This document shows, in pieces, positions 1 to 56,575 of a DNA stretch of 64,000 nucleotides. Source of the stretch: Patescibacteria group bacterium. GTDB taxonomy: Bacteria > Patescibacteriota > Patescibacteriia > UBA9934. The translations under genes and the position numbers were made by a program. The notes below the pieces were generated by a model, which worked only from the letters and a program-made list of their open reading frames with translations, had not been told where the DNA came from and did no database searches. Location of the stretch: assembly GCA_018062825.1 (NCBI GenBank), contig JAGORL010000001.1, positions 247,074-311,073 of the forward strand. The letters run 5' to 3'. Position 1 is the first letter of the stretch. Each line of letters begins with the position of its first letter.

Positions 1-204
1 GCTAGCCCGCTGCTTGTATTGTGGGAGAAGTGGGGAGGAGCACAGGTAAAGGATTCGAAATAAGAAGTAGAAAGGAGACGGTAGGAGTAAAGAGCACGCG
101 ACACTAGTGTCCGTGCTCTTTTGTTCGTGCGCCTGTGCTACTTCCGTCTTTTAACTTTAATCTCAGATGGACATCCCGGGGTTTCACCCCCACTTCCTAC
201 TGCT

Positions 205-219
205 TACTTCCTACTCCCT
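205..219 (+). repeat. CT-rich 15-mer TACTTCCTACTCCCT, copy 1
   Basis: Lies 18 nt upstream of the ATG of the membrane-protein gene at 238. Confidence 0.6.
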
Positions 220-237
220 GCTATACTTACACCAGCT

Positions 238-1761
238 ATGTTCGCCATTATCCTCAACCTTCCACCGGCAGTCCAAGATTTCCTTAACGTAACACCCGTT
301 GAGGATCTTGCTGCGTACGGTTTTCTAATTGCCGCACCATTTCCTATCCTCGGAATTCTTATCTGGGGCATGGTTCAACTCTGGCAAGACTTTAAGCAAG
401 ATAAGTGGACCGCGTCACTCAAGTGGATAACGCTTGATGTAAAAGTGCCAAGAGACACCGTGCAGACTCCAAAGGGTATGGAGAACTTTTTCTCTAACCT
501 GGCTGGTGTGAAAAGCGGACTCACCTGGCGTGAGCGCTGGTTAATAGGAAAAAAGCAGGCTTGGTTTTCTTTTGAACTCATTAGTCAGGGCGGCAAGATT
601 TCTTACCTGATTCGCACCCAAGAAAAGTACCGAGATATTATCGAGGCTGATCTGTACGCTCAGTATCCAGAAGCTCAGATTAGCGAGGTGCCGGATTACG
701 CGGATGAACTCCCTGTTGATTATCCAGATGAAGAATGGGATGTTTTCGGCGCTGAGATTTTGCTTTCAAAGCCAAATTATCTTCCTATTCGCACCTATGA
801 TGATTTTGAGCATCAAGGTGAGAAGGACAATCGTTTCAAAGATCCGATCTTGCCGCTTTTAGAGTTTTTTGGAAAATTGCGTCCAGATGAGCGACTATGG
901 ATTCAGATCATGATTCGTCCGCCAGAGAATAGCGATCACGTAAAAGCTGGCTTAAGTTTCCTCGCAAAGATCATGGGTAAGGAAGAGAAGAAGGCGCCAA
1001 AGGGCACTCTGGCTGAATTAGGTGACGCGCTTGCTGGTCTGCCAAAGGAACTGGTTACCCAAACGATCGGTATGGATTTTGGCGGCGGCGCTGCGGCTCC
1101 GATGGACAAGAAGGATGACTTCCGAGTGTTTAAGCTCACCCCAGCCGATAAGATTATTCTTGATTCGGTTGCTGAGAAGATTGCCAAGGTTGCCTGGGAG
1201 GTAAAGATCCGTTATGTGGCCGCTGGAAAAATGGGATCTTTCCGTAAGGGTCACTTTGCTTCCGGAATGAAGGGTATCCTGCAGCCATTTTCTAGTCAGT
1301 TATTAAATCAGTTAGGCATGCATGGCCCTTCGGTGCCAAACGATGACTACATCTGGTTAGCGTGGCAGATGCCGGGACGTCAGAAGAGATTGGTATCGCG
1401 CTTTAGGAATCGCATTTTTGATGCTGGCGCAACGCCAAGCATCATGAACTCTGAAGAGTTGGCAACCCTTTTCCACTTCCCAGCGTTTGATGCTCGTACG
1501 CCGTCACTGTATGGCGTTGGCGCACGTCGTGCTGAGGCTCCAGAGGAATTGTCATTTGCAGGTCCTGCTGCTCCAAGTACCCCTGGCTGGTCAGAGCTAT
1601 TCTCTGCTAATGTACTTCCAGACGATGAAGAAGCCGCAGGTGAGCCACAAGAAGAGCTACCAGCTCCAGAATTGCCTCGCCCTCACGCTCCAACTCGTCC
1701 CGGTGCGGCTCCAGTCCCAACTGCGGACAGCGCTGATACGCCTCCGAATCTGCCAGTCTAA
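238..1761 (+). CDS. hypothetical membrane protein with two N-terminal TM helices and a large hydrophilic domain; first gene of a pair with the T4CP-like ATPase
   Basis: ORF track 121..1761 starts at an alternative TTG; first ATG is at 238 (MFAIILNLPP...). Hydrophobic segments LTPAMFAIILNL and FLIAAPFPILGILIWGMV. No Shine-Dalgarno; a CT-rich leader precedes it. The stop lies 9 nt before the next gene. Confidence 0.5.
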   Translation: MFAIILNLPPAVQDFLNVTPVEDLAAYGFLIAAPFPILGILIWGMVQLWQDFKQDKWTASLKWITLDVKVPRDTVQTPKGMENFFSNLAGVKSGLTWRERWLIGKKQAWFSFELISQGGKISYLIRTQEKYRDIIEADLYAQYPEAQISEVPDYADELPVDYPDEEWDVFGAEILLSKPNYLPIRTYDDFEHQGEKDNRFKDPILPLLEFFGKLRPDERLWIQIMIRPPENSDHVKAGLSFLAKIMGKEEKKAPKGTLAELGDALAGLPKELVTQTIGMDFGGGAAAPMDKKDDFRVFKLTPADKIILDSVAEKIAKVAWEVKIRYVAAGKMGSFRKGHFASGMKGILQPFSSQLLNQLGMHGPSVPNDDYIWLAWQMPGRQKRLVSRFRNRIFDAGATPSIMNSEELATLFHFPAFDARTPSLYGVGARRAEAPEELSFAGPAAPSTPGWSELFSANVLPDDEEAAGEPQEELPAPELPRPHAPTRPGAAPVPTADSADTPPNLPV

Positions 1762-1770
1762 ACGTATCGT

Positions 1771-3657
1771 ATGAGTGAACAGCGTCCCCGTCTCGACCAC
1801 GAAAACATGATCGTCTACTTCGGCCAAACAAATTTCCGCAATGAAATGCGGAAATTTGGTATTAAGACCGATGATCGTCGTCGGCACGTCTATGTGATCG
1901 GTAAGACGGGTATGGGTAAAACCACGCTCCTTGAAAACATGATCTTAGCGGATATTTACGCTGGGCATGGTTGCTGCTACGTAGACCCGCACGGCGATAC
2001 CGCTGAGAAGCTTTTAGACTACATTCCGGCATGGCGTATTAATGACGTCGTGTACTTCAATCCATCAGACGCGGAACACCCGATCGGTTTCAATATTTTA
2101 GAGGCGATCGATCCGACCATGAAGAACCTGGTGGCGAGCGCCCTCATGTCGGTTTTTAAAAAGATCTGGGAGAACGTGTGGAGTGCACGCATGGAGTACA
2201 TCTTGAACAACACCATCTTGGCGCTTTTGGATACTCCGGGAACCACCATGCTTGGTGTAAACCGCATGTTGTCAGATAAGGATTATCGTTTAGAGATCGT
2301 TAAAAACATCAAAGATCCAATCGTGAAGCAGTTCTGGGTCCAAGAGTTTGCGGCTTATGATGCAAAGTTCGCCACTGAAGCAGTAGCGCCGATTCAAAAC
2401 AAGATTGGTCAGTTTATTTCGTCCGAGGTGATTCGTAACATTGTTGCGCAGGCAAACTCTTCCATCAATCTTCGGGAGATCATGGATAAAGGCAAGATTT
2501 TCATCATCAACCTTTCAAAAGGTCGTGTTGGTGAAGATGCCATGCGTCTTTTGGGCGGCATGCTCATCACTAAAATGCAGGTTGCGGCCATGGAGCGCGT
2601 GAACATGCCAGAAAAAGAGCGTCGCGATTTTTACCTCTACGTGGACGAGTTTCAGAACTTCGCCGTTGATTCCTTTGCGAGCATTCTTTCCGAGGCGCGT
2701 AAGTATCGTTTGAGTTTAATCATGGCGCACCAGTACATTACGCAGCTCTCTGAGCCGGTACGTGATGCAGTTTTCGGTAACGTTGGTACGATTATTTCGT
2801 TCCGTGTTGGCAGTATGGATGCCGAATTCCTTGAAACGGAATTTGCTCCACGCTTTACCGCAAACGACATTCTTAACCTGCCAAAATACGCCATCTACCT
2901 CAAGTTGATGATCGATGGCGTAGCAAGTCAGCCATTTTCGGCCGCCACGTTGCCACCGATTGCTCAGCGCACTGGTTCCATGGAGAAGGTTGTTCAGCAG
3001 TCGCGTGAGCGTTACGGCGGCAACCGTCAGCAGATTCAGGATAAAGTGGCCGTTTGGAGCGGTTTCGGACCAGATACAGACGTTGATGAAAAGATGGCCG
3101 AAGTATCAAAAGCTAAAAAAGATGCCAAGAAAGAGCGTTACATGCACGAGTATACGTGCTCACGTTGCGGTACGGTCTTTAAGTTGCCAATCGAACTTGA
3201 TCGCTCTCGCCCAATCTACTGTGAAGCCTGTAAGCCGATCATTGACTCTGAGCGGCAGAAGCGTGGCGGAAAGCCAAGCGGTGGAGCTAAGGGCCCATCC
3301 TCTAGTGGTGGCTCAAGGCAAGGTGGCGGCGGTGATCGTGCACGAGATCGTCAATCACAGCCAGTTGTCGCACGCCCGCCTTCGGTGCGTGATGGGGAGA
3401 TTATTACAAAGCCTGCGGTTGAAAAGAGTGCATCACTTGCGGATCTTGGCGGCGGTAAGATGCCAGTAAAGGAAGCGCCAAAGCCACAACCGCCAAAAGA
3501 TGAGAGAGCACCCCAAGCACAGGAACAAAGGGCGCCAAAAGAAACGCCATCGGTACAGCCAAAGAAGGAAGAGTTAAAGGCTGACGTTGCTCAGTCTCCA
3601 GCGCTTACTTCAAGTGCTAAGGTTGCCGTCTTACCAAACGAGCGCATCACGTTCTAG
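1771..3657 (+). CDS. TrwB/VirD4/TraD-type (type IV coupling protein-like) P-loop ATPase lacking an N-terminal membrane anchor, with a C-terminal CxxC...CxxC zinc ribbon and a low-complexity K/P/Q-rich tail
   Basis: Walker A VIGKTGMGKTT is followed by CYVDPHGD, which resembles the TrwB IVDPNGD motif. Walker B is FYLYVDEFQNF. C-terminus has CSRCGTVFKLPIELDRSRPIYCEAC followed by a G/S/P/K-rich tail. Confidence 0.65.
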   Translation: MSEQRPRLDHENMIVYFGQTNFRNEMRKFGIKTDDRRRHVYVIGKTGMGKTTLLENMILADIYAGHGCCYVDPHGDTAEKLLDYIPAWRINDVVYFNPSDAEHPIGFNILEAIDPTMKNLVASALMSVFKKIWENVWSARMEYILNNTILALLDTPGTTMLGVNRMLSDKDYRLEIVKNIKDPIVKQFWVQEFAAYDAKFATEAVAPIQNKIGQFISSEVIRNIVAQANSSINLREIMDKGKIFIINLSKGRVGEDAMRLLGGMLITKMQVAAMERVNMPEKERRDFYLYVDEFQNFAVDSFASILSEARKYRLSLIMAHQYITQLSEPVRDAVFGNVGTIISFRVGSMDAEFLETEFAPRFTANDILNLPKYAIYLKLMIDGVASQPFSAATLPPIAQRTGSMEKVVQQSRERYGGNRQQIQDKVAVWSGFGPDTDVDEKMAEVSKAKKDAKKERYMHEYTCSRCGTVFKLPIELDRSRPIYCEACKPIIDSERQKRGGKPSGGAKGPSSSGGSRQGGGGDRARDRQSQPVVARPPSVRDGEIITKPAVEKSASLADLGGGKMPVKEAPKPQPPKDERAPQAQEQRAPKETPSVQPKKEELKADVAQSPALTSSAKVAVLPNERITF

Positions 3658-3659: not shown

Positions 3660-4445
3660 ATGACTATCCTGCAGGCGGTGATTCTTGGGGTAGTGCAGGG
3701 GGTTACTGAGTTTCTCCCTGTCTCAAGCTCGGGGCACTTGCTGATTGTGCCGGCGCTTTTAGGCTGGCCAGAGCAAGCTATCGCCTTTGATGTGGCGGTA
3801 CATGTCGCCACACTCGTTGCTGTTGTAGTAGCGCTACGAGAAGAGATTTGGCAAGTAGGTTCGCAAGCAGTGAAGAGCTCGGGACCAGAGCGGAGTTTAG
3901 TGGTTAAAATAATCATCGCTACCATTCCGGCGGCTCTCGTTGCCTTTGCCTTCGGCGATTGGCTCGATCTTGCTCGTACGCCGCTTGTTGTTGGTGGAGC
4001 CTTGATCTTCTGGGGCGTACTTCTTGGCGTTATGGATTATTTTGCCAAAGGCCGCAAGCCAACACTCATCGCCGCTACGTCGTGGCGTGATGCGTTACTA
4101 CTCGGAGCCGCGCAGGCGCTTGCACTGATTCCGGGAACTTCGCGCTCAGGCGTTACGGTCACAACCGGTTTGGCGCTTGGACTTTCAAGAGAGACTGCCG
4201 CGCGTTTTTCATTCCTACTTGCCATTCCGGCAATTGCTGGCGCTGGTCTGCTGACCACGATCGACTCCATACAAAACGGACTCGATGTTGAAATACTACC
4301 TTTGATCGTGGGTTTCTTTAGCTCCATGTTCTCGGGACTCCTCGCGATTCGTCTGTTTCTGTATGTCGCAAAGCACGCCTCGCTCATGAGTTTTGCTGTA
4401 TACCGTGTACTTGTTGGAATTCTTATCCTTTGGTGGTTCATGTAA
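3660..4445 (+). CDS. uppP: undecaprenyl-diphosphate phosphatase
   Basis: VTEFLPVSSSGHL signature; multi-TM protein of about 260 aa. Confidence 0.9.
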   Translation: MTILQAVILGVVQGVTEFLPVSSSGHLLIVPALLGWPEQAIAFDVAVHVATLVAVVVALREEIWQVGSQAVKSSGPERSLVVKIIIATIPAALVAFAFGDWLDLARTPLVVGGALIFWGVLLGVMDYFAKGRKPTLIAATSWRDALLLGAAQALALIPGTSRSGVTVTTGLALGLSRETAARFSFLLAIPAIAGAGLLTTIDSIQNGLDVEILPLIVGFFSSMFSGLLAIRLFLYVAKHASLMSFAVYRVLVGILILWWFM

Positions 4446-11848: not shown

Positions 11849-12982
11849 ATGGGTCTCTTTGGTGGTAACAAAAACGCAGAGGAGCAGTTTGTTGGCGTGG
11901 TTGGCGTTGATATTGGTACCTCCGGTATCAAAATGGTCGAATTAACCCCGGAAAAGGGTCGACCAAAGCTCTCAACCTACGGCTATTCGGATGAAAAGAC
12001 TCCGTCGCCGGTTGCGCCGCAGTATATTGATAATCCGGAAGCTGCTGCCGAGGTTCTTCGCTCTGTTTACAAAGAGGGACGTTTTCGTGCTACTAAAGCC
12101 GTTGCAGCCTTGCCGGGCTCTGAGGTATCACACGCCATTATTACGCTCCCAGTCCCTCGCTCCGCTAAGGAAGATCTGAAGCCGCTCATTGAGGCGCAGG
12201 CTCGTAAATTCTTGCCACTTCCACTGGAGGAGATGATCTTAGATTCTCAGATTCTAGATAAGAATCTATTGCCAAAAGATGAAAAGTCCGTTGCTGCTCA
12301 GGCTGATCTTGAAATGGCTTCCGGTAATCGCAAGTTTATTCGTGTTCTTGTGACTGGCGCCCCAAAAACCCTCGTCACTAAGTATGTTGCAGCTTTTAAG
12401 GCAGCCAAGCTTGAACTCACCTCGTTAGAGACTGAAGTTTTTGCGGTCACTCGTTCGCTTGTTGGTAAAGATAAGTCGCGCATCATGATTGTTGATATTG
12501 GCGCGCATCGTACAAATATCACTATCGTTGACCAAGGGGTTCCTTACTTGTCACGCGGTATCCGCTCCGGCGGCGCGGCTATTACTCAGGCGCTGGCAAG
12601 CGGCATGAATACCGCCTTTGATGAAGCTGAAAGCATGAAGCGTGATCTAGGCTTCCGCCAAGATGCCGGCTTACCGAAGCCGCTTGAAGAGGCCTTGAAA
12701 CCGATCGTTCATGAGATGAAGTACGCTATTCAGCTCTATGCTGATCAGGAATTCCATGAGAACAAATCAGTAGAAAAGGTTATTCTCACCGGTGGTTCGG
12801 CGCTTCTCCCGGGACTAGTTGATCACTTTGTACGTGAACTCGGATTGAACGTGTACATCGGTGACCCCTGGGCACGTATCGCGTCACCAATGGAGGCGCG
12901 TGGTGTACTTGAAGAGGTAGGAACGCGTATGGCAGTGGCGGCTGGCTTAGCCTTGAGAGCCTTTGATACCGACAAAACGTAA
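11849..12982 (+). CDS. pilM: type IV pilus assembly ATPase-like protein PilM
   Basis: Actin-like fold motifs VGVDIGTSGIKMV and a later DIGA...T; size about 375 aa. Confidence 0.8.
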   Translation: MGLFGGNKNAEEQFVGVVGVDIGTSGIKMVELTPEKGRPKLSTYGYSDEKTPSPVAPQYIDNPEAAAEVLRSVYKEGRFRATKAVAALPGSEVSHAIITLPVPRSAKEDLKPLIEAQARKFLPLPLEEMILDSQILDKNLLPKDEKSVAAQADLEMASGNRKFIRVLVTGAPKTLVTKYVAAFKAAKLELTSLETEVFAVTRSLVGKDKSRIMIVDIGAHRTNITIVDQGVPYLSRGIRSGGAAITQALASGMNTAFDEAESMKRDLGFRQDAGLPKPLEEALKPIVHEMKYAIQLYADQEFHENKSVEKVILTGGSALLPGLVDHFVRELGLNVYIGDPWARIASPMEARGVLEEVGTRMAVAAGLALRAFDTDKT

Positions 12983-13380: not shown

Positions 13381-13866
13381 ATGCAAAGGATGGAAGTATT
13401 GATCGTCGGGTTACTCATTGGTGCCATCGGGCTTGTCTCTGGGCTTTCAGTCATGGGAGCTCGTGCTCGCTTGCGAGACGTCACGCGCCTGGCGCATGTG
13501 CGTGAATTACAGATGGGTCTAGAGTTTTCGTTTGCTAACCGCGGTACCTATCCAGTTGTTACTACACCAATTGCGCTTGGTGAGGCGCGCACTATTTGTT
13601 TAAGTGCAAACGGGTTTAACCCGCCATGCGGAGAGAACGAGGTACCATACATTGAGTTCGTGCCAGCGCCACCAAGCGCGGGCTTGTCTGGCAAGGCTGC
13701 ATGTGACGGCGTGCGCAATGGCTATTGTTACGCCTCAGATGGGGAGTCATTCCGCATCACTTTTGAACTTGAAAAAGCCAACCGTCAGCTTGGTCTGCCA
13801 AAGGGTGCCAACTGTGCTACGGAAAATGGCATAACCCCTGGCGTTTGTCAGGCTTTTGCGCAGTAG
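13381..13866 (+). CDS. type IV pilin-like protein with an atypical N-terminus
   Basis: Begins MQRMEVLIVGLLIGAIGLVSGL, a hydrophobic alpha1-N-like segment with Glu at position 5 but no G|F cleavage motif. C-terminal Cys pair CATENGITPGVC. Confidence 0.5.
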   Translation: MQRMEVLIVGLLIGAIGLVSGLSVMGARARLRDVTRLAHVRELQMGLEFSFANRGTYPVVTTPIALGEARTICLSANGFNPPCGENEVPYIEFVPAPPSAGLSGKAACDGVRNGYCYASDGESFRITFELEKANRQLGLPKGANCATENGITPGVCQAFAQ

Positions 13867-13867
13867 T

Positions 13868-14662
13868 ATGTTGCCAATCATCGCTATCCCACTAGCAGCG
13901 GTTCTCGGTCTTTTTGCTGGCGGCTTTGCGAACGCCGGCATCATGCGCACCAAGGAGACCTTGTCCTTTACTGCCAACCGTAAGTGCTCAATGTGTGCAC
14001 ACCCAATGCACGGTCACGACACGCTACCAATCGTAGGCTATCTTGGGTTACGTGGTCGTTGCCGGAAGTGTAAGGCCGTTATTCCATGGCAGTACCTCAT
14101 GACTGAAGTGGCCATGGCGGGTCTCTTTGCGCTTTTTGCCTGGCGGGCTTTTACACTGTTCGGCGCTCCAATTGAAGTTGAGGCTTCAGAGGCAATTCTA
14201 CTGTTCGCTCGTGACGCTGGAGTAAGTTTCTTCCTCGTGCTCATTTTCATGTTTGATTGGCGTGCGAGCGTGATTCCTGATCGCCTCAGCATTCCCGCCA
14301 TGTTTATAGCATTACTTGCTAACATCTTGCTTGGCATGCCAGCCACCGATGTTCTACTTGGCGGCTTACTTATCGGTTCTTTCTTTGCAATGCAGTTTTT
14401 CCTCACACGTGGTCAGTGGGTTGGTGGTGGAGATATTCGCATGGGATTACTCATGGGCTTCTTACTTGGTCCGTGGGTCGGTATTGCTGCGTTACTCTTG
14501 TCCTACATTTTTGGAGCATTGGTCGGTATCTTCCTGATCGCCACTGGTCGGCGTCAGCTTTCAAGTCATGTGCCATTTGGCACGTTTATGGCGGTTGCTA
14601 TACTCATCTGTATGCTTGCCGGCGCGCCAATTGTCGACCTCTACATCAAAGCCTTAACGTAG
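13868..14662 (+). CDS. pilD: prepilin peptidase (A24 family)
   Basis: CSMC...CRKC zinc site and multi-TM topology. ORF track TTG at 13856 overlaps the pilin gene; ATG at 13868 chosen. Confidence 0.85.
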   Translation: MLPIIAIPLAAVLGLFAGGFANAGIMRTKETLSFTANRKCSMCAHPMHGHDTLPIVGYLGLRGRCRKCKAVIPWQYLMTEVAMAGLFALFAWRAFTLFGAPIEVEASEAILLFARDAGVSFFLVLIFMFDWRASVIPDRLSIPAMFIALLANILLGMPATDVLLGGLLIGSFFAMQFFLTRGQWVGGGDIRMGLLMGFLLGPWVGIAALLLSYIFGALVGIFLIATGRRQLSSHVPFGTFMAVAILICMLAGAPIVDLYIKALT

Positions 14663-21677: not shown

Positions 21678-21730
21678 ACCCCGCGCCGTTTTCCCTGGAA
21701 TGGGTTGATGCAGCGCGGGGTTTGTGTTTC
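21678..21730 (+). terminator. rho-independent terminator after the dsbA-like gene
   Basis: ACCCCGCGC...GCGCGGGGT stem followed by TTTGTGTTTC. Confidence 0.65.
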
Positions 21731-21756
21731 TATACAGGCAAACAATTAGCTATCCT

Positions 21757-22434
21757 ATGGATCAAACAACACAACCAGCACCACAGGGACAGAAGAAAGG
21801 CCTTTCCACCTCAACCAAAGTAATCATTGGTGTCTTGGTTGCCATGGTACTTTTCGGCATGCTCGCCATTATTGGCGGCGCTATTGTGATAATGGTCGTG
21901 GCTAAGAATATCAAGGAAGCCAACATGGACAGCTACACGTACTCAGATTGGGAGTACACATCCTATGATGACGCCTCTACATCCTGGACCCCGTACACGG
22001 ACACCTTCGGTCGTTTCAGCGGTAGCTTCCCAGCCTACCCAACATATGAAACGGATAGCACGCCAATCACTGGCTCTGACGTTTTAGTATGGTACGACAT
22101 GTACTCCAGTGAAGATCTTGATGGCTACTACAGCATCACGGTCTCTGAGTATCCAGTAGAGATCGATCTTGGTGAGCCAGAAGCAAACTTGAACAATGCT
22201 CTTGATGGCTTGTTGGCTTCAACCGGTGCAAGTCTCGTTACCTCTGGGTTTGAAAGCGTGGAGGGAAACACGGCGCTTTATTACCTAGCCTCTACAAGCG
22301 ACGGCATTTACCTTGAGGGTAAGTCGATCGTGCAGGGCCAAGTGCTCTACCAGCTCATGGTAGCGTATGAAGATGAGGCCGCTTCCGCAGAAGGCCGTGA
22401 ACAGTTCTTCAGCTCCTTTGAACTCAATCAGTAG
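21757..22434 (+). CDS. hypothetical single-TM protein with a Y/T/S/D-rich extracytoplasmic domain
   Basis: TM segment VIIGVLVAMVLFGMLAIIGGAIVIMVV. ATG at 21757; ORF track starts at GTG 21724. Confidence 0.5.
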   Translation: MDQTTQPAPQGQKKGLSTSTKVIIGVLVAMVLFGMLAIIGGAIVIMVVAKNIKEANMDSYTYSDWEYTSYDDASTSWTPYTDTFGRFSGSFPAYPTYETDSTPITGSDVLVWYDMYSSEDLDGYYSITVSEYPVEIDLGEPEANLNNALDGLLASTGASLVTSGFESVEGNTALYYLASTSDGIYLEGKSIVQGQVLYQLMVAYEDEAASAEGREQFFSSFELNQ

Positions 22435-22447
22435 AATAGTCACTAGC

Positions 22448-22479
22448 AAAATAACCCCTCGTGGGGTTATTTTGTTTTT
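22448..22479 (+). terminator. rho-independent terminator (AAAATAACCCC tcgt GGGGTTATTTT)
   Basis: Perfect stem followed by a T-tract. Confidence 0.75.
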
Positions 22480-22537
22480 CGCGTACTTCGGGTACTGTAC
22501 CGCCGGCTACTGACAAACACCCGACCGTGAGGTTGCA

Positions 22538-23377
22538 ATGACGCCACAAGACCGACACTTCCGACAGCTCCTCGAGGAGCGCTGGTCGGCCGGCAAGTTC
22601 GTCTGCATTGGGCTCGATACGGATCCCGACAAGGTTCCTGAGGTCGTCGTCCGAGAGCCGGATGACCCGCACGCCTTCCTAGCCTTCAACAAGGCCATCA
22701 TCGAGGCAACTGGTGACATCGCTGGCGCCTTCAAGTTCAACAGTGCCTTCTACGAAGCGCACGGCGTCGCTGGCCTCATGGGGCTGCGTGACAGCATCAG
22801 GACGGCTCACCGCATCGCGCCCGGCGTACCGGTGATCCTCGACGCCAAGCGCGCCGACATCGACAATACGAACAGCGGCTACGTGCGCTTCGCCTTCGAC
22901 ATCATGCAGGCAGACGCCATCACGGTGAGTCCGTACCTCGGCCGCAAGGCGCTCAAGCCATTCCTCGAGTGCAAGAACAAGGGAATCTTCGTGCTGTGCC
23001 GTACGTCCAACGACGGCGCCGGCGAGTTCCAGGATCTCGAGTGCGGCGGCCTGCCGCTCTACGTGCACGTGGCTCGCAAGGTCGCCACGACCTGGAACGA
23101 GAACGGCAACTGCGGCGTGGTCGCTGGCGCAACGCGCCCGAGTGAACTCGCTACCGTTCGCTTCCAGGTCAACGATCTGCCGATCCTCATCCCTGGCATC
23201 GGGGCTCAGGGCGGGGACGTGGAAGCGACCGTCAAGGCCGGCAAGTGCTCGCGCGGCCGTGGCATGCTCGTGAACTCCTCACGTGGCATCATCTACGCTT
23301 CCTCGGGCAATGACTTCGCGAACGCTGCCCGCCTGGAAGCCCTGCGCCTGCACGAACTCATCACGAGCTTCCTGTAG
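22538..23377 (+). CDS. pyrF: orotidine 5'-phosphate decarboxylase (type 2), GC-rich islet
   Basis: DAKRADIDNT and GIGAQGGD motifs. About 65% GC with GC3 bias; GAGG ribosome-binding site. Confidence 0.85.
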   Translation: MTPQDRHFRQLLEERWSAGKFVCIGLDTDPDKVPEVVVREPDDPHAFLAFNKAIIEATGDIAGAFKFNSAFYEAHGVAGLMGLRDSIRTAHRIAPGVPVILDAKRADIDNTNSGYVRFAFDIMQADAITVSPYLGRKALKPFLECKNKGIFVLCRTSNDGAGEFQDLECGGLPLYVHVARKVATTWNENGNCGVVAGATRPSELATVRFQVNDLPILIPGIGAQGGDVEATVKAGKCSRGRGMLVNSSRGIIYASSGNDFANAARLEALRLHELITSFL

Positions 23378-23419
23378 CAGGCACCGCAACCGACCCCTAC
23401 GCGGGTCGGTTTTCTGTTT
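23357..23419 (+). repeat. direct repeat copy A (pyrF 3' end plus terminator hairpin AACCGACCC..GGGTCGGTT)
   Basis: About 88% identical to 24175..24236. The hairpin arms are conserved; differences are confined to the loop and a 2-nt indel. Confidence 0.7.
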
Positions 23420-23447
23420 AAAAATATCAGCAATTAGTAGAAAATTA

Positions 23448-23476
23448 TTGACAAAATGCCAATTTTATGCTAATAT
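23448..23476 (+). promoter_or_regulatory. near-consensus sigma70 promoter TTGACA-17-TAATAT
   Basis: AT-rich spacer. Drives the GC-rich membrane-protein gene, whose ATG at 23540 has GGAGAGG upstream. Confidence 0.6.
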
Positions 23477-23539
23477 ATTGTGTCTTTATTGACCTTTCGG
23501 CGCCATCAGCCGACTGAGAAACACAGAAGGAGAGGCGCC

Positions 23540-24166
23540 ATGATCGCGCTGATCGTCAAGGTGCTATTCTGGTCAGTCTTCGCCACCATCCTGGCCTGCC
23601 TGGAGATCGAGAGCGAAGGGAAGTACGGGTGGGCGCACAAGGCGCCGACCTGGTACCGCACCACCGGGTTCTTCGGGAAGCTGTACGGCATGATCATGGG
23701 CGGCAAGCCGCTCACCGGCTACCACCTGTTCATGTTCCTCTTCACCTTCATGATCTTCCACGTTCCGTTCTTCTCGGGCGTGGTGTGGTCGGCCGAGGGC
23801 GAGCTTCTCGCCTGCGCGATGTACTTCGCCTGGTGCACGCTGTGGGACTACATCTGGTTCGTGTTGAACCCCGCCTACGCTGGTCGATTCACGCGCAACA
23901 ACGTGTGGTGGCACTCCGGAAGCCCCTGGATCTTCGGACTGTTCCCGCTCGACTACCTGTCGGGCGTCACGCTCTCCTTGGGTCTCGCTGGAGCCGCCGC
24001 CTGGCACTCGGGAGAAGCTCAGCTCTTCGTCGATCACCTCGCGGTCCTCATCGGATTCGGGGCCTACGTCGCACTCATGCACTTGTGCGCGCCCGCCTAC
24101 CGCTACTGGTATGGCTACATGCGCCTGAGTGATGACCGCGACAAGGTCGACATCGTCTATCCCTGA
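23540..24166 (+). CDS. hypothetical integral membrane protein (about 208 aa, W/F/Y-rich TM helices), GC-rich
   Basis: ATG with GGAGAGG 5 nt upstream; ORF track starts at 23480. High GC3 bias. Confidence 0.55.
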   Translation: MIALIVKVLFWSVFATILACLEIESEGKYGWAHKAPTWYRTTGFFGKLYGMIMGGKPLTGYHLFMFLFTFMIFHVPFFSGVVWSAEGELLACAMYFAWCTLWDYIWFVLNPAYAGRFTRNNVWWHSGSPWIFGLFPLDYLSGVTLSLGLAGAAAWHSGEAQLFVDHLAVLIGFGAYVALMHLCAPAYRYWYGYMRLSDDRDKVDIVYP

Positions 24167-25867: not shown

Positions 25868-27283
25868 TTATCGGGTAGATGTCGGGTAAAGCCAGACAGG
25901 ACTTGTATCACCAGCTGACCAGGTAGCAAAGTCGGTGAACTGCGTGTTCTCAAAAACATACACCGGACTTGGGTCACCATTCATGTTGAGCCATGAGACT
26001 TCAACGGTATACGTTCCAGGATTCATTGGGATGGTCACGCTTGTTTCCGGCGATGCTTGCGCGCTACCCCAAGGTGAATTGCGTGTTGCCGTGTCAGGAA
26101 TGGTTGATGTGAACTCGTCAACAACTCCTAAGACACGATAGCGAATATCGGTATAGCTATCGTAGATAACAAACGTAAGCATTGATTCATTCTCTGGTCC
26201 GGCGGGGTTAACAACAAGCACGATCGGATTATCAAGCATGGCGCTGACCGTAGAATCTGCAAACTGATTCTTGTATGTATTGATAAGCGTACGAACCCCG
26301 TCATACATGAAGGTATTAATGAAATACACCTCGAGGTTATCAGTTGGTGGCAGGGAAGTAAGAGCGGTAACGACCTCCTTCAGTTTTGCTTGATCTGAAG
26401 TAGTCCACTTTTGCTGTTCGCTTGCAGAGAGCTCGTTAGCGTAAACATACGTACCAACGACGCTATACTCATTCATGAGCCAGTACAAAAGAACAGATGA
26501 GTCGCCGTAAAGCGTGCGAACAGTGTCGTAATGCGCGCGGCGCTGCGCGGTGTCTTTCATGAGCGCGCCTTCCATAAGTGCCGCCACAACATTTGCCGGC
26601 TGATCATCCGCAAGCTCTCGATAGAGTGTAGCAAGCTCATTCTTGCTCATTTCGTACTTAGCGATCAGATTAAAATTTTGGTAGGCATCAATATACGGAT
26701 AACCGTACGCAAAGAACTCTCGGTACGCAGCAACTGCTTCATCATTCTTACCTTGTGACGCATAAAGAACGGCGTTGCCGTACCACTCCTCTGCAGTATC
26801 AGGGCGAGTGGTGATCGACCCTTGCTCGGCGGCCTGAAGATCGGCTTTGAGTTCACCAAGCTGCAAGAGAATCTGAGCGGTGTCGCCCTTAATGTCAGCG
26901 GTCGTGCGCTTAATCTCGTTAACATCCTCCTGCAAAATGCCGATCGATCGCTGCAAGTCCTCAACGCCTGGAACGGTAGCCGCTAAAACACCATTCTTCG
27001 GACCGGCAACATGCACCAGGGCAAAGATCGCCCAAATGATGGCAAACACCCCAAAGAACACTACGCGAGTTTTTGCGGCCTCTTGCTTGGTAACGACGTT
27101 ATCGCGTCTGAAGTAGAGATAAAAAATCGAGGTGATACCAACGCCAACGAGCGAGGCGATAAGAAGGTAAAGTGACAAATTCGCAAGCGGAGAGAGGACA
27201 TCGTTCACAAAGCCGCCAATACCACCAATTGTGCCGAAAAGCGGAAGATTTTGACGAATGTATTGCTTGATGGAGTCGATCAT
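25868..27283 (-). CDS. hypothetical protein with an N-terminal TM helix, a coiled-coil segment and an extracellular domain
   Basis: ORF track start 27412 would overlap the divergent MFS gene. The internal ATG (MIDSIKQ) at 27283 leaves a 104-bp divergent promoter region. Confidence 0.5.
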   Translation of the reverse strand: MIDSIKQYIRQNLPLFGTIGGIGGFVNDVLSPLANLSLYLLIASLVGVGITSIFYLYFRRDNVVTKQEAAKTRVVFFGVFAIIWAIFALVHVAGPKNGVLAATVPGVEDLQRSIGILQEDVNEIKRTTADIKGDTAQILLQLGELKADLQAAEQGSITTRPDTAEEWYGNAVLYASQGKNDEAVAAYREFFAYGYPYIDAYQNFNLIAKYEMSKNELATLYRELADDQPANVVAALMEGALMKDTAQRRAHYDTVRTLYGDSSVLLYWLMNEYSVVGTYVYANELSASEQQKWTTSDQAKLKEVVTALTSLPPTDNLEVYFINTFMYDGVRTLINTYKNQFADSTVSAMLDNPIVLVVNPAGPENESMLTFVIYDSYTDIRYRVLGVVDEFTSTIPDTATRNSPWGSAQASPETSVTIPMNPGTYTVEVSWLNMNGDPSPVYVFENTQFTDFATWSAGDTSPVWLYPTSTR

Positions 27284-27386
27284 AATGACTCGAATAATGC
27301 CACAAAAAGCGCCCGATGTCCACTTGCGTGCGGTATGATGGAAACATTGCTCATTAGCAAAATATAGGTATACTTGTGCCCTCTCT

Positions 27387-28703
27387 ATGACCATCGCCAA
27401 GCACCGCAGCATATTTTACGCCCTGCTCACCAATGCCCTTGTTGTTGTTGTCACAAACTCGTTCGTCTGGTTTGCGGTGACTTTCTGGGTGTATTTGGAG
27501 ACGCGATCAGTTATCGCTACGTCACTTATCGCCGGCATGTATACCGTAGCTAATGCGGTGTCAGCACTTTTTTTTGGCGCGCTCGTGGATCATAATAAAA
27601 AGAAGACGGCCATGGTCTTCTCGACCGTCATCTCGTTTATCGCTTATGCCGCCGGGCTCATTATTTTGCTCGCCGCCGGCTCTGATCGTTTTACAGACAT
27701 CACCTCGCCAGTTTTGTGGGTCTGGGTCGGGCTCCTCCTTTTTGGTTCGATCATCGGTAATATTCGCACCATCGCCTTATCAACAACGGTGCCAGTGCTT
27801 TTTGAAGAGAAGGATCGGGGTCAGGCCAACGGTCTCATTGGCACAACAAACGGCATTGCCTTTGCTATCACGTCAGTTGCTAGCGGTATTGTGATTGGTT
27901 TCTTTGGTATGGATATCGCGCTCATGGTGGCGGTGCTGTGTATGGCGCTTGCTATCGTGCACCTATCGTTTATCAAAATCCCAGAGCCAGAAATCGTTGT
28001 CGATCATGCTAAGCCTCGCCGCGTTGATCTGTGGGGAACGTTCAAAGTTGTTCGTGCCATACCGGGATTGCTAGCACTTATTTTCTTCACCACGTTTAAC
28101 AACTTTCTTGGGGGAGTATTCATGGCGCTCATGGATGCTTACGGGTTGTCTCTCGTGTCCGTGCAGGCTTGGGGTCTTATGTGGGGCGTGTTAAGCACGG
28201 CGTTTATTGCAGGTGGCTTACTGATTGCTAAATTTGGACTTGGCAAAAATCCACTACGAACCATGATCATGATTAACATGATCACCTGGAGTGTTTGTAT
28301 CTTCTTCACCATTCAAGAGTCGATCGTGCTTACAGCGATCGGTCTTTTTACCTGGATGATCTGCGTGCCGTTTATTGAGGCTTCTGAGCAAACAATTCTG
28401 CAAGGCGTTGTGCCACAAGAACGCCTAGGACGCGTGATTGGTTTTGCGCAAAGCGTTGAATCAACCGCATCACCGGTAACAACCTTGTTCATCGGGCCGC
28501 TAACGCAGTGGTTCTTCATCCCATTCATGACAACCGGTGCTGGCGTTACCCTCATTGGTGGTTGGTTTGGAGTGGGGGATGCTCGTGGTATTGCGCTCGT
28601 GTTCACCGTTGCCGGCATTCTTGGACTCACCGTAACTCTCGCTGCACGCTTTTCGGCTTCGTACCGCCGTTTGTCACATACGATTGCTACCACAATGAAG
28701 TAA
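27387..28703 (+). CDS. MFS transporter
   Basis: 12-TM topology with MFS-like loops. Confidence 0.85.
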   Translation: MTIAKHRSIFYALLTNALVVVVTNSFVWFAVTFWVYLETRSVIATSLIAGMYTVANAVSALFFGALVDHNKKKTAMVFSTVISFIAYAAGLIILLAAGSDRFTDITSPVLWVWVGLLLFGSIIGNIRTIALSTTVPVLFEEKDRGQANGLIGTTNGIAFAITSVASGIVIGFFGMDIALMVAVLCMALAIVHLSFIKIPEPEIVVDHAKPRRVDLWGTFKVVRAIPGLLALIFFTTFNNFLGGVFMALMDAYGLSLVSVQAWGLMWGVLSTAFIAGGLLIAKFGLGKNPLRTMIMINMITWSVCIFFTIQESIVLTAIGLFTWMICVPFIEASEQTILQGVVPQERLGRVIGFAQSVESTASPVTTLFIGPLTQWFFIPFMTTGAGVTLIGGWFGVGDARGIALVFTVAGILGLTVTLAARFSASYRRLSHTIATTMK

Positions 28704-28708
28704 AAAAA

Positions 28709-28744
28709 GACCCGAACGGTTCGCAGGTGTGCGTCGTTCGGGTC
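28709..28744. terminator. hairpin GACCCGAACG...CGTTCGGGTC with a 16-nt loop
   Basis: Preceded by an A7 tract, which gives a U-tract for the minus-strand gene ending at 28743. May also act on the + strand MFS transcript. Confidence 0.5.
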
Positions 28745-29330
28745 AGCGCGTCGGCAGTTCGCTAATGCGCTGCAGGAGTTCCAAGAGATCGTCAGGCCGC
28801 TCGTAGGCATCCGGCATCGCGATCTCGATTGCGATCGGGTCATGCACGAGCGACTGGTGGCTGATCAGCCAGCTCGGCGGATCATGAGAGTCCGTGCGAG
28901 TCGGTGTGATGATCTTCGTGATGCGTTCGGGGCGATCGAATCGTCCACGCTTCTTCGCCGTTGCGATCTGCGAGGCGATCGAATCATCCACACTGTGGGC
29001 CGGCAGTACCCCGCGGATGAAGTCCGCATTCGGCAGGAGTCGGCGCACATAGAAGCGCAGGCACGTAAGCGGATAGCCGCGTGCCAGCACGGCTGCGCAC
29101 ACCGGATCAAGTTCCGGCGTGTGCTGACCAAGTTCCGGAGCGCTGACTACCAGCTTGCGCATGCTCGCCGTACTGTGACGAATCTGCACCGTGCCACGGA
29201 ACTGGCTGATGTAGTCAGGTACGCCCGCGGTCGTGGTGCGCAGGAGGTAGCGACAGCGGTTTACGATCGCCACCATCATGAAGCTCTGACCATCGGCGTG
29301 TTCGCAGATGATCTCGATCGCAATATCCAT
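28743..29330 (-). CDS. hypothetical protein, GC-rich, with possible 2H-phosphoesterase-like H-x-[ST]-x motifs (RHSTA, SHQSL)
   Basis: ATG with GGAGG 4 nt upstream; about 60% GC. The motif assignment is tentative. Confidence 0.45.
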   Translation of the reverse strand: MDIAIEIICEHADGQSFMMVAIVNRCRYLLRTTTAGVPDYISQFRGTVQIRHSTASMRKLVVSAPELGQHTPELDPVCAAVLARGYPLTCLRFYVRRLLPNADFIRGVLPAHSVDDSIASQIATAKKRGRFDRPERITKIITPTRTDSHDPPSWLISHQSLVHDPIAIEIAMPDAYERPDDLLELLQRISELPTR

Positions 29331-29500
29331 GAGGCCTCCAAGAAGAAGGGACGCAAGCGGACTCTAGCAAGAGAAGCGCAGGATGAAAAGAGTGCTCCCT
29401 TGCAAGAGGTACCAAGAAGTCTGTATAAAAAGGCGGATTCTATAGGGATCTTGCCGTTCTTAAGTGGACGAGCTAGCATGCCAAGGCCTAGGGGGAGTAC

Positions 29501-30097
29501 ATGCCAAAGAAGCTGCTCATCACCGGTGGACCGGGGGGTGGAAAGTCAACCATCATTCGTAGCCTCAAGGAGGAGTTCGAGGGACGTATTGTGTGCGTCC
29601 AGGAGGCAGCAACGCTGCTGCTCGCTACCGGCTTCCCGCCGCCTGGCGAGTCACCGCACCCGGATGATCTTGTTGCCTTTCAGCGCAAGATCTTCACGAC
29701 CATCATGGACCTCGAGTATCACGCCATGAGCTACGCGACACGTGAAGGCATTCCGCTCGTCGTGTGCGACCGCGGTCTCCTCGACGGGGAGGCCTACATG
29801 AACAGCCGTGAGGAGTTCATGCGCACGGTCGGCATCACGGATCGCGCGATGTTCCTGAATGGCTACGACGAAGTGCTCTACGTGGAATCGCCGGCGCCTT
29901 CTGCAGACTTCGTCTGGTCGCGCACGGCGGGCAACGAACACCGCATGGAGCACGATCGCTCCATCGCAGCCAAGATCGAAGGTCGGACTTGGGAAGCATG
30001 GCGCGATCACCCCAAGATCCGCCACATTCCTCACACCTGGGGGTTTCAAGGAAAGGGCGTCATCGTTCGTGCCCGCGTCCTCGAGCTCCTGGAGTAA
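29501..30097 (+). CDS. P-loop NTPase of AAA_28 / NadR-kinase-like type, GC-rich
   Basis: ITGGPGGGKST Walker A, EAAT, and VVCDRGLLDGEAY are typical of AAA_28 kinases. GGGGGAG ribosome-binding site. Confidence 0.55.
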   Translation: MPKKLLITGGPGGGKSTIIRSLKEEFEGRIVCVQEAATLLLATGFPPPGESPHPDDLVAFQRKIFTTIMDLEYHAMSYATREGIPLVVCDRGLLDGEAYMNSREEFMRTVGITDRAMFLNGYDEVLYVESPAPSADFVWSRTAGNEHRMEHDRSIAAKIEGRTWEAWRDHPKIRHIPHTWGFQGKGVIVRARVLELLE

Positions 30098-36351: not shown

Positions 36352-37218
36352 ATGCCAGCAGCCAATTTTCATAAAGATGACCTGCGGGACTGTGCAGCGC
36401 TTGTTAAAAAGACCAAAGAACGAGCTTTTTTTGCTGTTAAATTTCTACCAAAAGACGCAAGAGATGCGGTTTTAGTCCTACGAGCCTTTGTGCACATCGC
36501 CCTGTCTCATAAAGATGCGGGCGATGCGCAGAAGCTCGCCATCTTCAAGGATGCCTGGCGCGCGGCTCTTATCTCAGCCCCACCGATAAGCATTCCAGCG
36601 GCTTGGTTCTCGGTCTTGCGTGCCACAAGTGAGGTATTCCGTGTTTATAAAATTAGCGCCGCGGAAGGAGACCTCTTTTTTACCGCCTTAGAAAAAGATT
36701 TAGATCGTGGTTTGTGTGTGCCGCAATCTGATATCGATGAGATTGAGGCGGGTATGGCAGCGATTGGTCGCATGTTCGCTAAAGCCGTGCAGTGTGAGGA
36801 TGAGCGCGGCGTAATCGCCTGCGGAGAGGTTGCGCGTGCCATGTATCGCACCGAGAGTCTTGTGCGGTTTGAAGCGAGCGTAGTAAAGCATCGTCGCGTT
36901 TCCATGAGTGTTGAGATGTGTAGATCAGTAGGGGTTGAAGACGAGCACGTAACTGCCGGTCGAGTATCACCGGAACTCATAGCGCTGTTCAAGAAACACA
37001 TTTTTGAAACCCGTCAGATCTATCGTGGTGCTGAACGCGCGCTTGCACTACTTCCCATGGGATCATCCCGAGCGGCGCGTGTTATTGCCGCAATATACGA
37101 ATCAAAACTTGATCGCGTTGTTGCACAAAAATACGATGTCTTCCATGGAGCTCGCAAGCCATCCATCACTATGCGTCTACTTGTGTCTATTCGTCTCTGG
37201 ATACGTTTACGCGGCTAG
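36352..37218 (+). CDS. squalene/phytoene synthase-family protein with degenerate Asp-rich motifs
   Basis: FFAVKFLPKDARDAVLVLRAF resembles the CrtB/HpnD N-terminus. The expected ADDIVD motif is replaced by SHKDAGD and the second DxxxD region is also altered. Confidence 0.6.
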   Translation: MPAANFHKDDLRDCAALVKKTKERAFFAVKFLPKDARDAVLVLRAFVHIALSHKDAGDAQKLAIFKDAWRAALISAPPISIPAAWFSVLRATSEVFRVYKISAAEGDLFFTALEKDLDRGLCVPQSDIDEIEAGMAAIGRMFAKAVQCEDERGVIACGEVARAMYRTESLVRFEASVVKHRRVSMSVEMCRSVGVEDEHVTAGRVSPELIALFKKHIFETRQIYRGAERALALLPMGSSRAARVIAAIYESKLDRVVAQKYDVFHGARKPSITMRLLVSIRLWIRLRG

Positions 37219-37271
37219 CCTGGACGCAACAAAACCCGTCGATTCGTCGTTTGCACGACAAGTGACGGGTT

Positions 37272-37712: not shown

Positions 37713-37747
37713 GAAAGTCTCCTTGGAAAGAGCGACGTGCAAGGGTA

Positions 37748-38254: not shown

Positions 38255-38301
38255 CTATATAAAGGCGTTTGTTTCCTTTATGATGCCAGAGACTTTTACG
38301 T

Positions 38302-46812: not shown

Positions 46813-46830
46813 AGGGTGAAAATTGACCGA

Positions 46831-46859
46831 ATGATAGCTGATTTTTTTGTTTTTGGCAA
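46831..46859 (-). promoter_or_regulatory. sigma70-like promoter TTGCCA-17-TATCAT for typA (minus strand)
   Basis: Reverse complement of 46831..46859. The -10 lies about 18 nt upstream of the ATG, so the leader is short. Confidence 0.45.
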
Positions 46860-46885
46860 GTCGTAAGGGGGATGGAGTGAAAATC

Positions 46886-46913
46886 AAAAAACGGCCAGTA
46901 TTGGCCGTTTTTA
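46886..46913 (-). terminator. terminator hairpin ACGGCCA gtat TGGCCGT flanked by A and T tracts
   Basis: Immediately downstream of the minus-strand gene whose stop is at 46914. Confidence 0.65.
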
Positions 46914-56541: not shown

Positions 56542-56575
56542 AGATATTTCGCGAAGGTTAGCAGATTTTTAGAAA

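Follow-up and report, generated by a model that had tools for sequence, protein, structure and literature searches.

Near the start of a 64-kb stretch of a Patescibacteria chromosome (assembly GCA_018062825.1, contig JAGORL010000001.1, positions 247,074 to 311,073; hereafter the window), two adjacent genes encode what we interpret as the two parts of one ATP-driven machine. Gene A (238..1761) encodes a DUF8128 (PF26449) protein of 507 amino acids (aa), identical to NCBI KBC55_01290, which would be the N-terminal module of a split ATPase. Gene B (1771..3657) encodes a 628-aa coupling ATPase of the VirD4/TrwB type that has no membrane anchor. Coordinates are window positions on the + strand unless stated otherwise. 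Our favored interpretation, to which we assign a probability of about 50%, is that A and B make up a split type IV coupling ATPase with a long N-terminal domain, which serves a type IV secretion system (T4SS) encoded elsewhere. We hold with high confidence that the two proteins are one functional unit, in which a transmembrane (TM) helix and DUF8128 are combined with a VirD4-type motor. The pair is a core feature across the Patescibacteria, split or fused depending on the lineage. The numbers of homologs (more than 340 for A, with 2,518 representative clusters at 50% identity in a profile search, and more than 8,000 for B) indicate that A and B are not chance open reading frames (ORFs).

Split and fused forms of the gene pair

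We compared 79 loci of GTDB species representatives, 76 of which were long enough to be informative. In 75 of these 76 loci, among them those of Moraniibacteriota and of a Saccharibacteria metagenome-assembled genome (MAG), A is immediately followed by B in the same orientation. An earlier note on this DNA had proposed a synteny check of the pair, and the two genes are thus conserved as neighbors. The sole informative DUF8128 locus without an ATPase next to it is in a Parcubacteria MAG ("viral-cat_58_25"; L078, 2057..3301 of that record), where an ORF of 100 aa and then a 431-aa gene, which is unrelated, follow the DUF8128 gene instead. This exception could reflect loss, rearrangement, or misassembly.

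In the locus of the Saccharibacteria MAG (L080), a single ORF contains a TM helix, DUF8128, the motif ..EPPSNLP.., and then the ATPase (..FGLSEGDDRLRHMYVIGKSGTGKST..). A search with this ORF recovered more than 100 fused proteins of 750 to 825 aa that combine PF26449 with PF10412, PF01935, or PF12696. These proteins are from WWE3, Gottesmanbacteria, Kazan, Peregrinibacteria, Gracilibacteria, and Parcubacteria, with the Saccharibacteria represented by L080. The fused orthologs carry a ..PPxNLP.. motif directly before the N terminus of the ATPase. In the split form the break point falls exactly after the ..NLP motif, and the N terminus of B (YFGxTNFRN..FGIKTDDRRRH) can be aligned to the linker found in fused proteins.

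The earlier note had proposed a split coupling protein with A as its membrane anchor. The fused orthologs support the split, but what is conserved in A is the DUF8128 domain and not the anchor. An N-terminal hydrophobic segment is present in 43 of 74 fused orthologs and absent from the other 31, some of which may have miscalled starts. Anchoring therefore appears to be common, not universal, in the fused forms, and the conserved contribution of A is its domain.

Motor and zinc ribbon of gene B

Pfam, PDB sequence, Foldseek, and hhalign searches all placed B with the VirD4/TrwB-type ATPases, as the earlier note had proposed from the motifs. The Walker A motif (GKTGMGKT, residues 44 to 51; 1900..1923) is followed by YVDPHGD, and the Walker B motif is YLYVDE (residues 288 to 293; 2632..2649), extending as YLYVDEF to residue 294. 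G44, T46, G47, G49, and K50 at the first motif and V291, D292, E293, F294, and Q295 at the second are invariant in 35 homologs. Between the motifs lies a predicted all-alpha insert (residues about 112 to 230; 2104..2460) with seven helices in the AlphaFold2 (AF2) model, which would be the equivalent of the all-alpha domain of TrwB. The Pfam scores are above the gathering cutoffs for TrwB_AAD_bind (52.2 bits; cutoff, 20.5), T4SS-DNA_transf (35.4 bits; cutoff, 20.1), and TraG-D_C (26.2 bits; cutoff, 22). When PDB sequences were searched with B as a single protein or as a 35-sequence profile, TrwB and DotL were the sole matches. The hhalign comparison of the B profile with TrwB gave a probability of 94% (E value, 1.3e-7), with an alignment of 268 columns that extends from Walker A to Walker B via the all-alpha region and is continuous through TrwB residues 118 to 392. 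Against TrwK/VirB4, the P-loop alone aligned, with a probability of 2.5%. Foldseek with the B model ranked DotL, TrwB, and Cagbeta (3e-7 to 7.5e-7) above VirB4 (1e-4) and HerA (1e-3).

No VirB4-type ATPase profile scored above its cutoff in B (P-loop_TraG, 13.5 bits versus 25.8; NCBIfam VirB4_CagE, 18.9 versus 643), and there were no matches to the Pfam families CagE_TrbE_VirB and AAA_10. Placement in a HerA/FtsK clade, which the earlier note had named as the outcome that would speak against it, was not seen. DUF87 was barely over its cutoff at 23.8 bits and FtsK_SpoIIIE reached 15.7 bits versus 24, and both profile and fold searches gave the TrwB/VirD4 clade. B is also far below the NCBIfam equivalog cutoffs for characterized type IV coupling proteins (T4CPs), with 48 bits versus 250 for conju_CD1115, 44 versus 366 for SXT_TraD, and 27 versus 648 for TOL TraD. 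B has no membrane segment, as no 19-aa window reaches a hydropathy of 1.5, in agreement with the absence of an N-terminal TM segment described before. In summary, B has the Walker A and B motifs, the Pfam membership, and, in the model, the all-alpha insert of a T4CP, and it lacks an in-chain N-terminal TM domain, a relaxase or VirB4 gene neighborhood, and a place in a characterized NCBIfam subfamily. We conclude that B is very probably a member of the VirD4 clade.

The conservation of B is unusually high, as its best 120 homologs are 60 to 90% identical to it. In Moraniibacteriota, B is 53 to 67% identical, while A is only 27 to 34% identical.

Downstream of the motor and separated from it by three helices in the AF2 model, B carries a CxxC-x17-CxxC zinc ribbon of the zf_Tbcl_2/TIGR04272 type (residues 459 to 490; 3145..3240; predicted local distance difference test [pLDDT] score, 86 to 94). 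Its cysteines C463, C466, C484, and C487 are invariant in the 35 homologs, and its profile scores are below the cutoffs (25.2 bits versus 27 for Pfam and 24.3 versus 36 for NCBIfam). The ribbon is followed by a disordered, low-complexity tail rich in G, S, P, K, Q, and A (residues 500 to 628; 3268..3654; pLDDT, <50) that varies in length and sequence among homologs. The ribbon and tail noted earlier on the ATPase are therefore real, with an invariant cysteine pattern, but the ribbon belongs to the split lineages only. Among full-length proteins, it occurs in 66 of 66 of the split type versus 0 of 74 of the fused type, and it is thus not a family-wide feature. B appears to have gained the ribbon, along with the tail, in the split lineages. 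A phmmer search of the window detected no paralog of A or B, and the sole extra match (55915..56568) was to the zinc ribbon domain. A stand-alone 209-aa protein there (55912..56541, - strand) has two copies of the CxxC-x17-CxxC ribbon (zf_Tbcl_2; E value, 1.8e-30), and the ribbon seems to be a reusable module in this genome.

B also matches the PADLOC profile mad8, from the MADS defense system, at 1.7e-19, which is better than its match to the Pfam T4CP profile. Some defense ATPases may therefore share the soluble VirD4-like branch to which B belongs. Membership of B itself in a MADS system was considered and rejected, as its neighbors are secDF, uppP, and methyltransferase, rluA, mnmA, and lepA genes.

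DUF8128 module of gene A

A and all of its listed homologs are assigned to PF26449 in the precomputed Pfam annotation of the protein database. Our own searches of A against Pfam (in a copy that did not return the PF26449 model), NCBIfam, and PDB sequences gave no match. The earlier note had described A as a protein with two TM segments; only one strong hydrophobic segment is present. This TM helix (residues about 23 to 49; 304..384) is the sole place where the 19-aa Kyte-Doolittle mean exceeds 1.5, and the model has helices at residues 21 to 32 and 34 to 60. The fused orthologs have no second TM segment ahead of the ATPase, and from this we infer an N-out/C-in topology for A. Because the fused chains lack any TM segment that would separate DUF8128 from the ATPase, DUF8128 must be cytoplasmic.

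The AF2 model of A has a pLDDT of 76 overall and above 90 in the core (residues about 60 to 420; 415..1497), which is the DUF8128 domain. The core is followed by a disordered, acidic, proline-rich tail (1498..1758; pLDDT, <50) ending in PPNLPV-COOH (1741..1758), of which P502, N504, L505, and P506 are each at least 90% conserved. When the model was submitted to Foldseek, eleven chains of TrwK, the VirB4 protein of R388, ranked at the top. A VirB4 structure consisting of the C-terminal ATPase only (4ag5) was matched by B, not by A, and several of the matched TrwK chains have no Hcp1 fusion. The match of A is therefore to the VirB4 N-terminal domain. These chain-level matches, which came from the searches without residue ranges, suggest that the core of A has a VirB4-N-terminal-domain fold. 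A sequence-level tie to known proteins was sought and not found, either to TrwK, to TrsD (227 aa; no profile similarity), or to any PDB chain.

Relatives outside the Patescibacteria

The nearest relatives outside the phylum are encoded mainly by phages of Bacillota. The PHROG family phrog_5156 (824 positions) is matched by A at positions 71 to 286 (E value, 5.6e-6) and by B at positions 406 to 804 (5.5e-62). Its members combine a DUF8128-like N-terminal region with an ATPase like that of A-B in a single fused chain without a zinc ribbon. A tblastn search with a fused ortholog recovered phage G gp156 (E value, 9e-35), gp27.4 of SPO1 together with its relatives, gp44 of Geobacillus phage PK2.1 (84% coverage), and a locus on a Priestia megaplasmid. 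The B profile aligned with SPO1 gp27.4 at a probability of 98% (E value, 6e-14), closer than with TrwB. Motifs of A and of the phage N-terminal regions are in register (PELARIIHMP versus EELATLFHFP).

Unlike A-B, the phrog_5156 genes adjoin VirB4-, VirB6-, VirB2-, and relaxase-like genes. In phage G (L088, 1233..6797), the VirB4-like gp155 directly precedes gp156, and the TrbL_4 (VirB6-like) gp153 is two genes further upstream. In SPO1 (L087, 3227..8737), gp27.4 overlaps at its end with gp27.3, a Replic_Relax gene, and upstream of it is a gene for an actin-like partition protein. In PK2.1 (L086, 6450..9034), gp43, with a subthreshold VirB2/TrbC match, precedes gp44, and a VirB4-like ORF lies 6 kb from the relative on the Priestia plasmid. 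Large Bacillus phages thus hold a conjugation-like module beside a relative of the DUF8128-T4CP protein. A scan of IMG/VR with patterns from A, which are specific to the Uhrbacteria-type sequence, found no relative.

Genomic context

The window starts with the final 20 codons of secF (1..63), in which frame 1 reads ...ASPLLVLWEKWGGAQVKDSK followed by a stop codon and is identical to the C terminus of the SecF protein that the native contig (L001) encodes ahead of A. Upstream of A, that contig carries secA, several other genes, secD, and secF. An intrinsic terminator follows secF at 89..125 (a 13-bp hairpin with a free energy of -19.2 kcal/mol, then TTTTGTT). It was missed by the pattern scanner, as its loop is below the scanner minimum. 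The terminator sets the A-B transcription unit apart from secDF. It also decides the start of A: TTG 121 was rejected because it falls within the terminator hairpin, and homologs begin at the equivalent of ATG 238, which gives the 507-aa protein. The spacer between A and B is 9 nucleotides (nt), which agrees with the earlier description of a 507-aa gene at that distance. Only 2 nt separate B from uppP (3660..4445; Pfam BacA, 5e-75), which is probably cotranscribed with B. The location directly upstream of uppP, in a chromosomal housekeeping context, is thereby confirmed.

The genes on the B side include an rRNA/tRNA-modification-type methyltransferase gene, rluA, mnmA, and lepA. The remaining genes of the window are of the housekeeping type, namely those for an S-adenosylmethionine-dependent methyltransferase and an rluA-type synthase, mnmA, lepA, recJ, ligA, gatA, lgt, dnaG, rpoD, and others. 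The region has an even GC content of about 0.50. The type IV pilus genes pilM (11849..12982; PilM_2, 5.5e-42) and pilD (13856..14662; A24) are located on the same strand 8 to 11 kb downstream of B. Type IV pili of Saccharibacteria mediate competence and host attachment. The earlier statement that no T4SS genes lie within 60 kb holds for the window, and to it these pilus genes have to be added.

In Uhrbacteria-type genomes, a 116-aa coiled-coil gene is followed by secD, secF, A, B, uppP, and a methyltransferase gene, an arrangement that is widely maintained. secD-secF is directly upstream of A in 61 of the 79 loci, and uppP is 3' of B in 43. The Kazan-type and Gracilibacteria-type fused gene sits among gatCAB, ligA, murAB, or pentose phosphate genes. 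The secDF linkage thus appears to be lineage synteny, because it is lost in Kazan, Gracilibacteria, and Saccharibacteria. The uppP linkage is likewise restricted to some lineages, and the sole constant partner of the ATPase across the phylum is DUF8128. A third conserved partner gene was considered and rejected, as the small Kazan-type flanking genes are unrelated to the 116-aa coiled-coil gene and are not kept elsewhere.

In the Moraniibacteriota-type loci (L068 to L079), the gene upstream of A reads by eye as sigma70_r4 plus HARE-HTH. In Southlakia, SEML1_0294, the gene upstream of the DUF8128-T4CP candidate SEML1_0293, is annotated with the same two domains and is essential. Such a neighbor could represent a conserved regulatory link. 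Many of the records that are Patescibacteria by content (L003, L005 to L008, L012, and others) are titled "uncultured Gammaproteobacteria bacterium." Their secDF-DUF8128-T4CP-uppP block is 50 to 85% identical to that of the window, and the labels appear to be wrong.

Proposed function

In the mechanism that we propose, A would supply the single membrane helix and a cytoplasmic VirB4-N-terminal-like domain, and B would supply the VirD4/TrwB-type motor, in which an all-alpha insert interrupts a RecA-like nucleotide-binding domain. The ..PPNLPV peptide and the VirB4-like domain of A would dock on the N-terminal face of B and so restore the arrangement of the fused chain. The complex may assemble as a membrane-proximal ring, like TrwB and VirB4, and such a ring would use ATP to pass a substrate from the cytoplasm on to a conduit in the envelope. 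Nucleic acid or nucleoprotein would be the most likely substrate, and the conduit would most likely be a monoderm-type VirB4 system at another locus, whose own cluster has no coupling protein. The role of A-B would be accessory and not required for laboratory growth on the host. We consider it an even call whether A-B works with a distal T4SS rather than alone, and we judge the chances of a nucleic acid substrate to be equally balanced.

A role with a distal T4SS is favored by the published record, since the essential T4SS cluster of Southlakia epibionticum was found to contain no recognizable coupling protein (Wang et al. 2023, PMC10633639). It is also favored because T4CP genes are often encoded away from virB4. 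Quinonero-Coronel et al. 2025 counted 5,713 VirD4-type T4CP homologs in 2,918 of 3,035 Patescibacteria genomes (~96%), with 148 of the 5,713 near virB4, and they found VirB4 in 2,417 of the genomes, about 80% (PMC12102498). The authors state that exaptation of the T4CPs "cannot be ruled out" (PMC12102498). The DUF8128-T4CP family is one of two paralog groups among the T4CP-type ATPases of the Patescibacteria. Finally, the sole informative gene contexts among the relatives of A-B, those described above for phages and a plasmid, are T4SS-like, which favors the same role.

The Southlakia protein SEML1_0293 has 921 aa, with PF10412 at residues 402 to 719 (PMC10633639 tables). It was flagged as "core" and "Patescibacteria-enriched," and it was nonessential at three time points by transposon sequencing (Tn-seq); its normalized reads fell from 5817 to 2940 to 1372, a drop of about 4-fold, while its neighbors stayed flat (PMC10633639). 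Patescibacteria T4SS clusters hold essential arrays of VirB2-like pilins, and in Southlakia the pilins and VirB4 are essential (PMC10633639). Unlike the split A-B, SEML1_0293 is a single chain without a zinc ribbon annotation, and by its size, its domain positions, and the fusion seen in L080, it is most likely the fused-form ortholog. T4CPs are not required for pilus biogenesis, as is the case for Agrobacterium VirD4. A dispensable T4CP could thus be reconciled with an essential T4SS, which favors the distal-T4SS role.

The family is thus not unrecorded. The abundance of T4CP homologs, the DUF8128 profile, and one Tn-seq phenotype, that of the presumed Southlakia ortholog, are already on record. 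DUF8128 was not found mentioned in the literature searched, and there we found no description of the VirB4-N-domain fold of DUF8128, of a split tied to the gain of a zinc ribbon, of the near-perfect synteny of the pair, or of the tie of phrog_5156 to T4SS-like phage modules.

Several results weigh against a coupling function with a distant T4SS. None of the approximately 52 ORFs scanned in the window contained a Pfam domain of a T4SS protein, a relaxase, or VirB4, and tblastn with VirB4 and relaxase queries also found nothing there. Used as tblastn queries against the flanks of the pair (±8 kb in 84 Patescibacteria records, 1.2 Mb), TrwK and TrsE, two VirB4-like proteins from phages or plasmids, TrwC, and a protein of the Replic_Relax type matched nothing but the P-loop of B itself. 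No complete T4SS adjoins the pair in the window or in these flanks, an outcome that the earlier note had asked about, and the tie to a T4SS is therefore indirect. Relaxases are rare, with 109 in the 3,035 genomes (PMC12102498). T4CP homologs occur in more genomes (2,918) than VirB4 does (2,417), so some genomes may carry the pair without a T4SS, a comparison that is confounded by MAG incompleteness and by the second T4CP-like paralog. In Southlakia, that different paralog, SEML1_0142, is essential, as is FtsK (PMC10633639), and SEML1_0142 could be the true coupling protein of the essential T4SS. With respect to A, no similarity to TrwK is detected at the sequence level by hhalign, so the likeness is structural only and comes from an AF2 model, and A matches the N-terminal regions of the phage proteins weakly (E value, about 1e-3 to 1e-6), the relatives being distant. 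The AF2 model of B has a mean pLDDT of 66 and is unreliable at residues 298 to 384 despite high conservation there, probably due to a shallow alignment of very similar sequences. However, the pair need not act apart from type IV secretion just because T4SS genes are missing from its surroundings.

Alternative explanations

It is possible, although we think it less probable than the coupling of A-B to a T4SS, that the pair is a secretion-independent nucleic acid motor. As a counterpart of CedB/CedD or a stand-in for ComFA, it would import host or environmental DNA or RNA, or export DNA, through a non-T4SS conduit such as ComEC and the type IV pilus. The archaeal CedB/CedD proteins of Saccharolobus are like A-B in layout, are chromosomal, have no relaxase, and are dispensable for growth; CedD consists of a TM segment, a VirB4-N-terminal-domain-like domain, and an ATPase and is needed for DNA import only (PMC11868833). 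B has weak NCBIfam matches to CedD (5e-7) and CedB. These are far under the equivalog cutoffs, however, with 28.7 bits versus 600 for CedD and 19.2 versus 700 for CedB. The CedB/CedD ATPases are grouped with HerA and VirB4, whereas B is VirD4-like, and no CedA-like channel gene adjoins A-B. The wider spread of the T4CP family relative to VirB4 fits a motor of this kind, and nucleic acid binding would be a plausible task for the zinc ribbon and the basic tail. Nevertheless, the sole informative contexts of relatives are those with VirB4-, VirB6-, and relaxase-like genes. In Southlakia, the gene is dispensable in coculture, as is comEC, and no gene in the annotation tables is named ComFA. If the nucleotide supply relied on the motor, however, the gene would be expected to be essential. 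A cultivated Patescibacterium takes up host RNA by a route that is unknown (bioRxiv 10.64898/2026.06.21.733656), and pilM and pilD are downstream of the pair in the window, but outside the common synteny block the pair shows no conserved association with comEC, dprA, or pilus genes.

We regard it as quite improbable that the pair is a VirB4-like assembly ATPase or an envelope biogenesis factor that acts on membrane proteins, either by pilin extraction or as an aid to Sec-dependent export. Action on membrane proteins is proposed here because the N-terminal domain is of the VirB4 type, as suggested by the fold match of A, and this explanation would account for the location between secDF and uppP, with the frequencies given above. 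The essential VirB2-like pilin arrays of Patescibacteria T4SS clusters would offer a substrate. However, a strong terminator lies between secF and A, and in Kazan, Gracilibacteria, and Saccharibacteria the secDF linkage is gone and the neighbors are gatCAB, ligA, pentose phosphate, or sigma-like genes. Moreover, the motor is VirD4-type and not VirB4-type, and the pilins and VirB4 of Southlakia are essential, while SEML1_0293 is not.

An origin as a mobile element or defense remnant or cargo, that is, an orphan conjugative T4CP or a MADS/HerA-type ATPase without a host function, is hardly credible. It would be in line with the mad8 match, weak HerA and DndH matches, and the relatives in phages and on a plasmid, but the family is in nearly all Patescibacteria and is flagged as core, B is 53 to 85% identical across classes, the housekeeping synteny is stable with a uniform GC content, the adjacent genes include no integrase, relaxase, methylase, or further MADS gene, and IMG/VR yielded no relative with the Uhrbacteria-type-specific patterns of A. 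An FtsK-like pump for chromosome segregation or division is just as doubtful: B is a member of the FtsK-HerA superfamily that would be membrane tethered, with a weak FtsK_SpoIIIE P-loop match (0.011), but it lacks a gamma domain, its profile and fold matches put it with VirD4 and not with FtsK, and Southlakia already has a canonical essential FtsK with the four-TM, alpha, beta, and gamma domains.

Other features of the window

A 628-aa and a 540-aa ORF at 45001..46887 and 46914..48536 were considered as a second A-B copy and rejected, as they encode TypA/BipA and an unrelated protein. The 540-aa ORF (- strand), which adjoins typA, is close in length to the TTG-extended gene A by coincidence. 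It is one of two large ORFs without a Pfam match, the other being a 514-aa ORF at 25868..27412 (- strand). Further ORFs without a Pfam match are at 21724..22434, 23480..24166, 28842..29729, and 62768..63964, and ORFs overlap on opposite strands at 23480..24166. The local GC content rises to 0.56 to 0.59, versus a background of 0.50, at 22001..24000, 28001..30000, and 62001..64000. At 36352..40405, genes for a phytoene/squalene synthase (SQS_PSY), a Caroten_synth protein (3.4e-44), and a DNA photolyase adjoin each other, a light-related gene set that is unexpected for a metabolically reduced Patescibacterium.

Comparison with known systems and implications

The textbook layout of a T4CP is a two-TM anchor followed by the nucleotide-binding domain. 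Canonical T4CPs (TrwB of R388, VirD4, DotL, and Cagbeta) share the motor of B, with a Walker A motif and ..VDPxGD, an all-alpha insert, and a Walker B motif of the form hhhhDE followed by F or L. In contrast to these proteins, the B chain has no TM segment and the anchor is a single helix on the separate protein A. A adds a domain of about 360 aa that is VirB4-N-terminal-domain-like, B adds a C-terminal zinc ribbon, and the two are chromosomal core genes without adjacent relaxase or T4SS genes. With VirB4 (TrwK of R388), the core of A appears to share the fold of the N-terminal domain, whereas the ATPase of B is VirD4-type; the Patescibacteria hold a separate, bona fide VirB4. In the monoderm mating-pair-formation type FATA plasmid pGO1, TrsD, a protein related to the VirB4 N terminus, is encoded directly upstream of the ATPase TrsE, as A is upstream of B. 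However, TrsD has only 227 aa, TrsE is a VirB4 and not a T4CP, and both are inside a complete conjugation operon, unlike A-B.

The pair thus adds a coupling protein architecture that departs from the textbook layout and that has parallels in TrsD/TrsE and CedB/CedD. What had been an "orphan T4CP homolog" is now a defined, testable object, a two-part split or fused machine with a VirB4-fold N-terminal module, whose nearest relatives outside the phylum are in modules with VirB4-, VirB6-, and relaxase-like genes. The predictions made here are directly testable in Southlakia epibionticum, which can be manipulated genetically and in which the presumed ortholog is nonessential. A further-reaching proposal, which we consider unlikely, is that the DUF8128-T4CP protein is the motor of a Patescibacteria-specific system for nucleic acid exchange with, or scavenging from, the host, an analog of Ced, and that its layout could preserve an intermediate in the divergence of VirB4 and VirD4, the two ATPases universal to type IV secretion. 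If true, this proposal would provide a handle on the acquisition of DNA or RNA by these nucleotide-auxotrophic epibionts. The Patescibacteria make up a large share of bacterial diversity and depend on their hosts for nucleotides and lipids.

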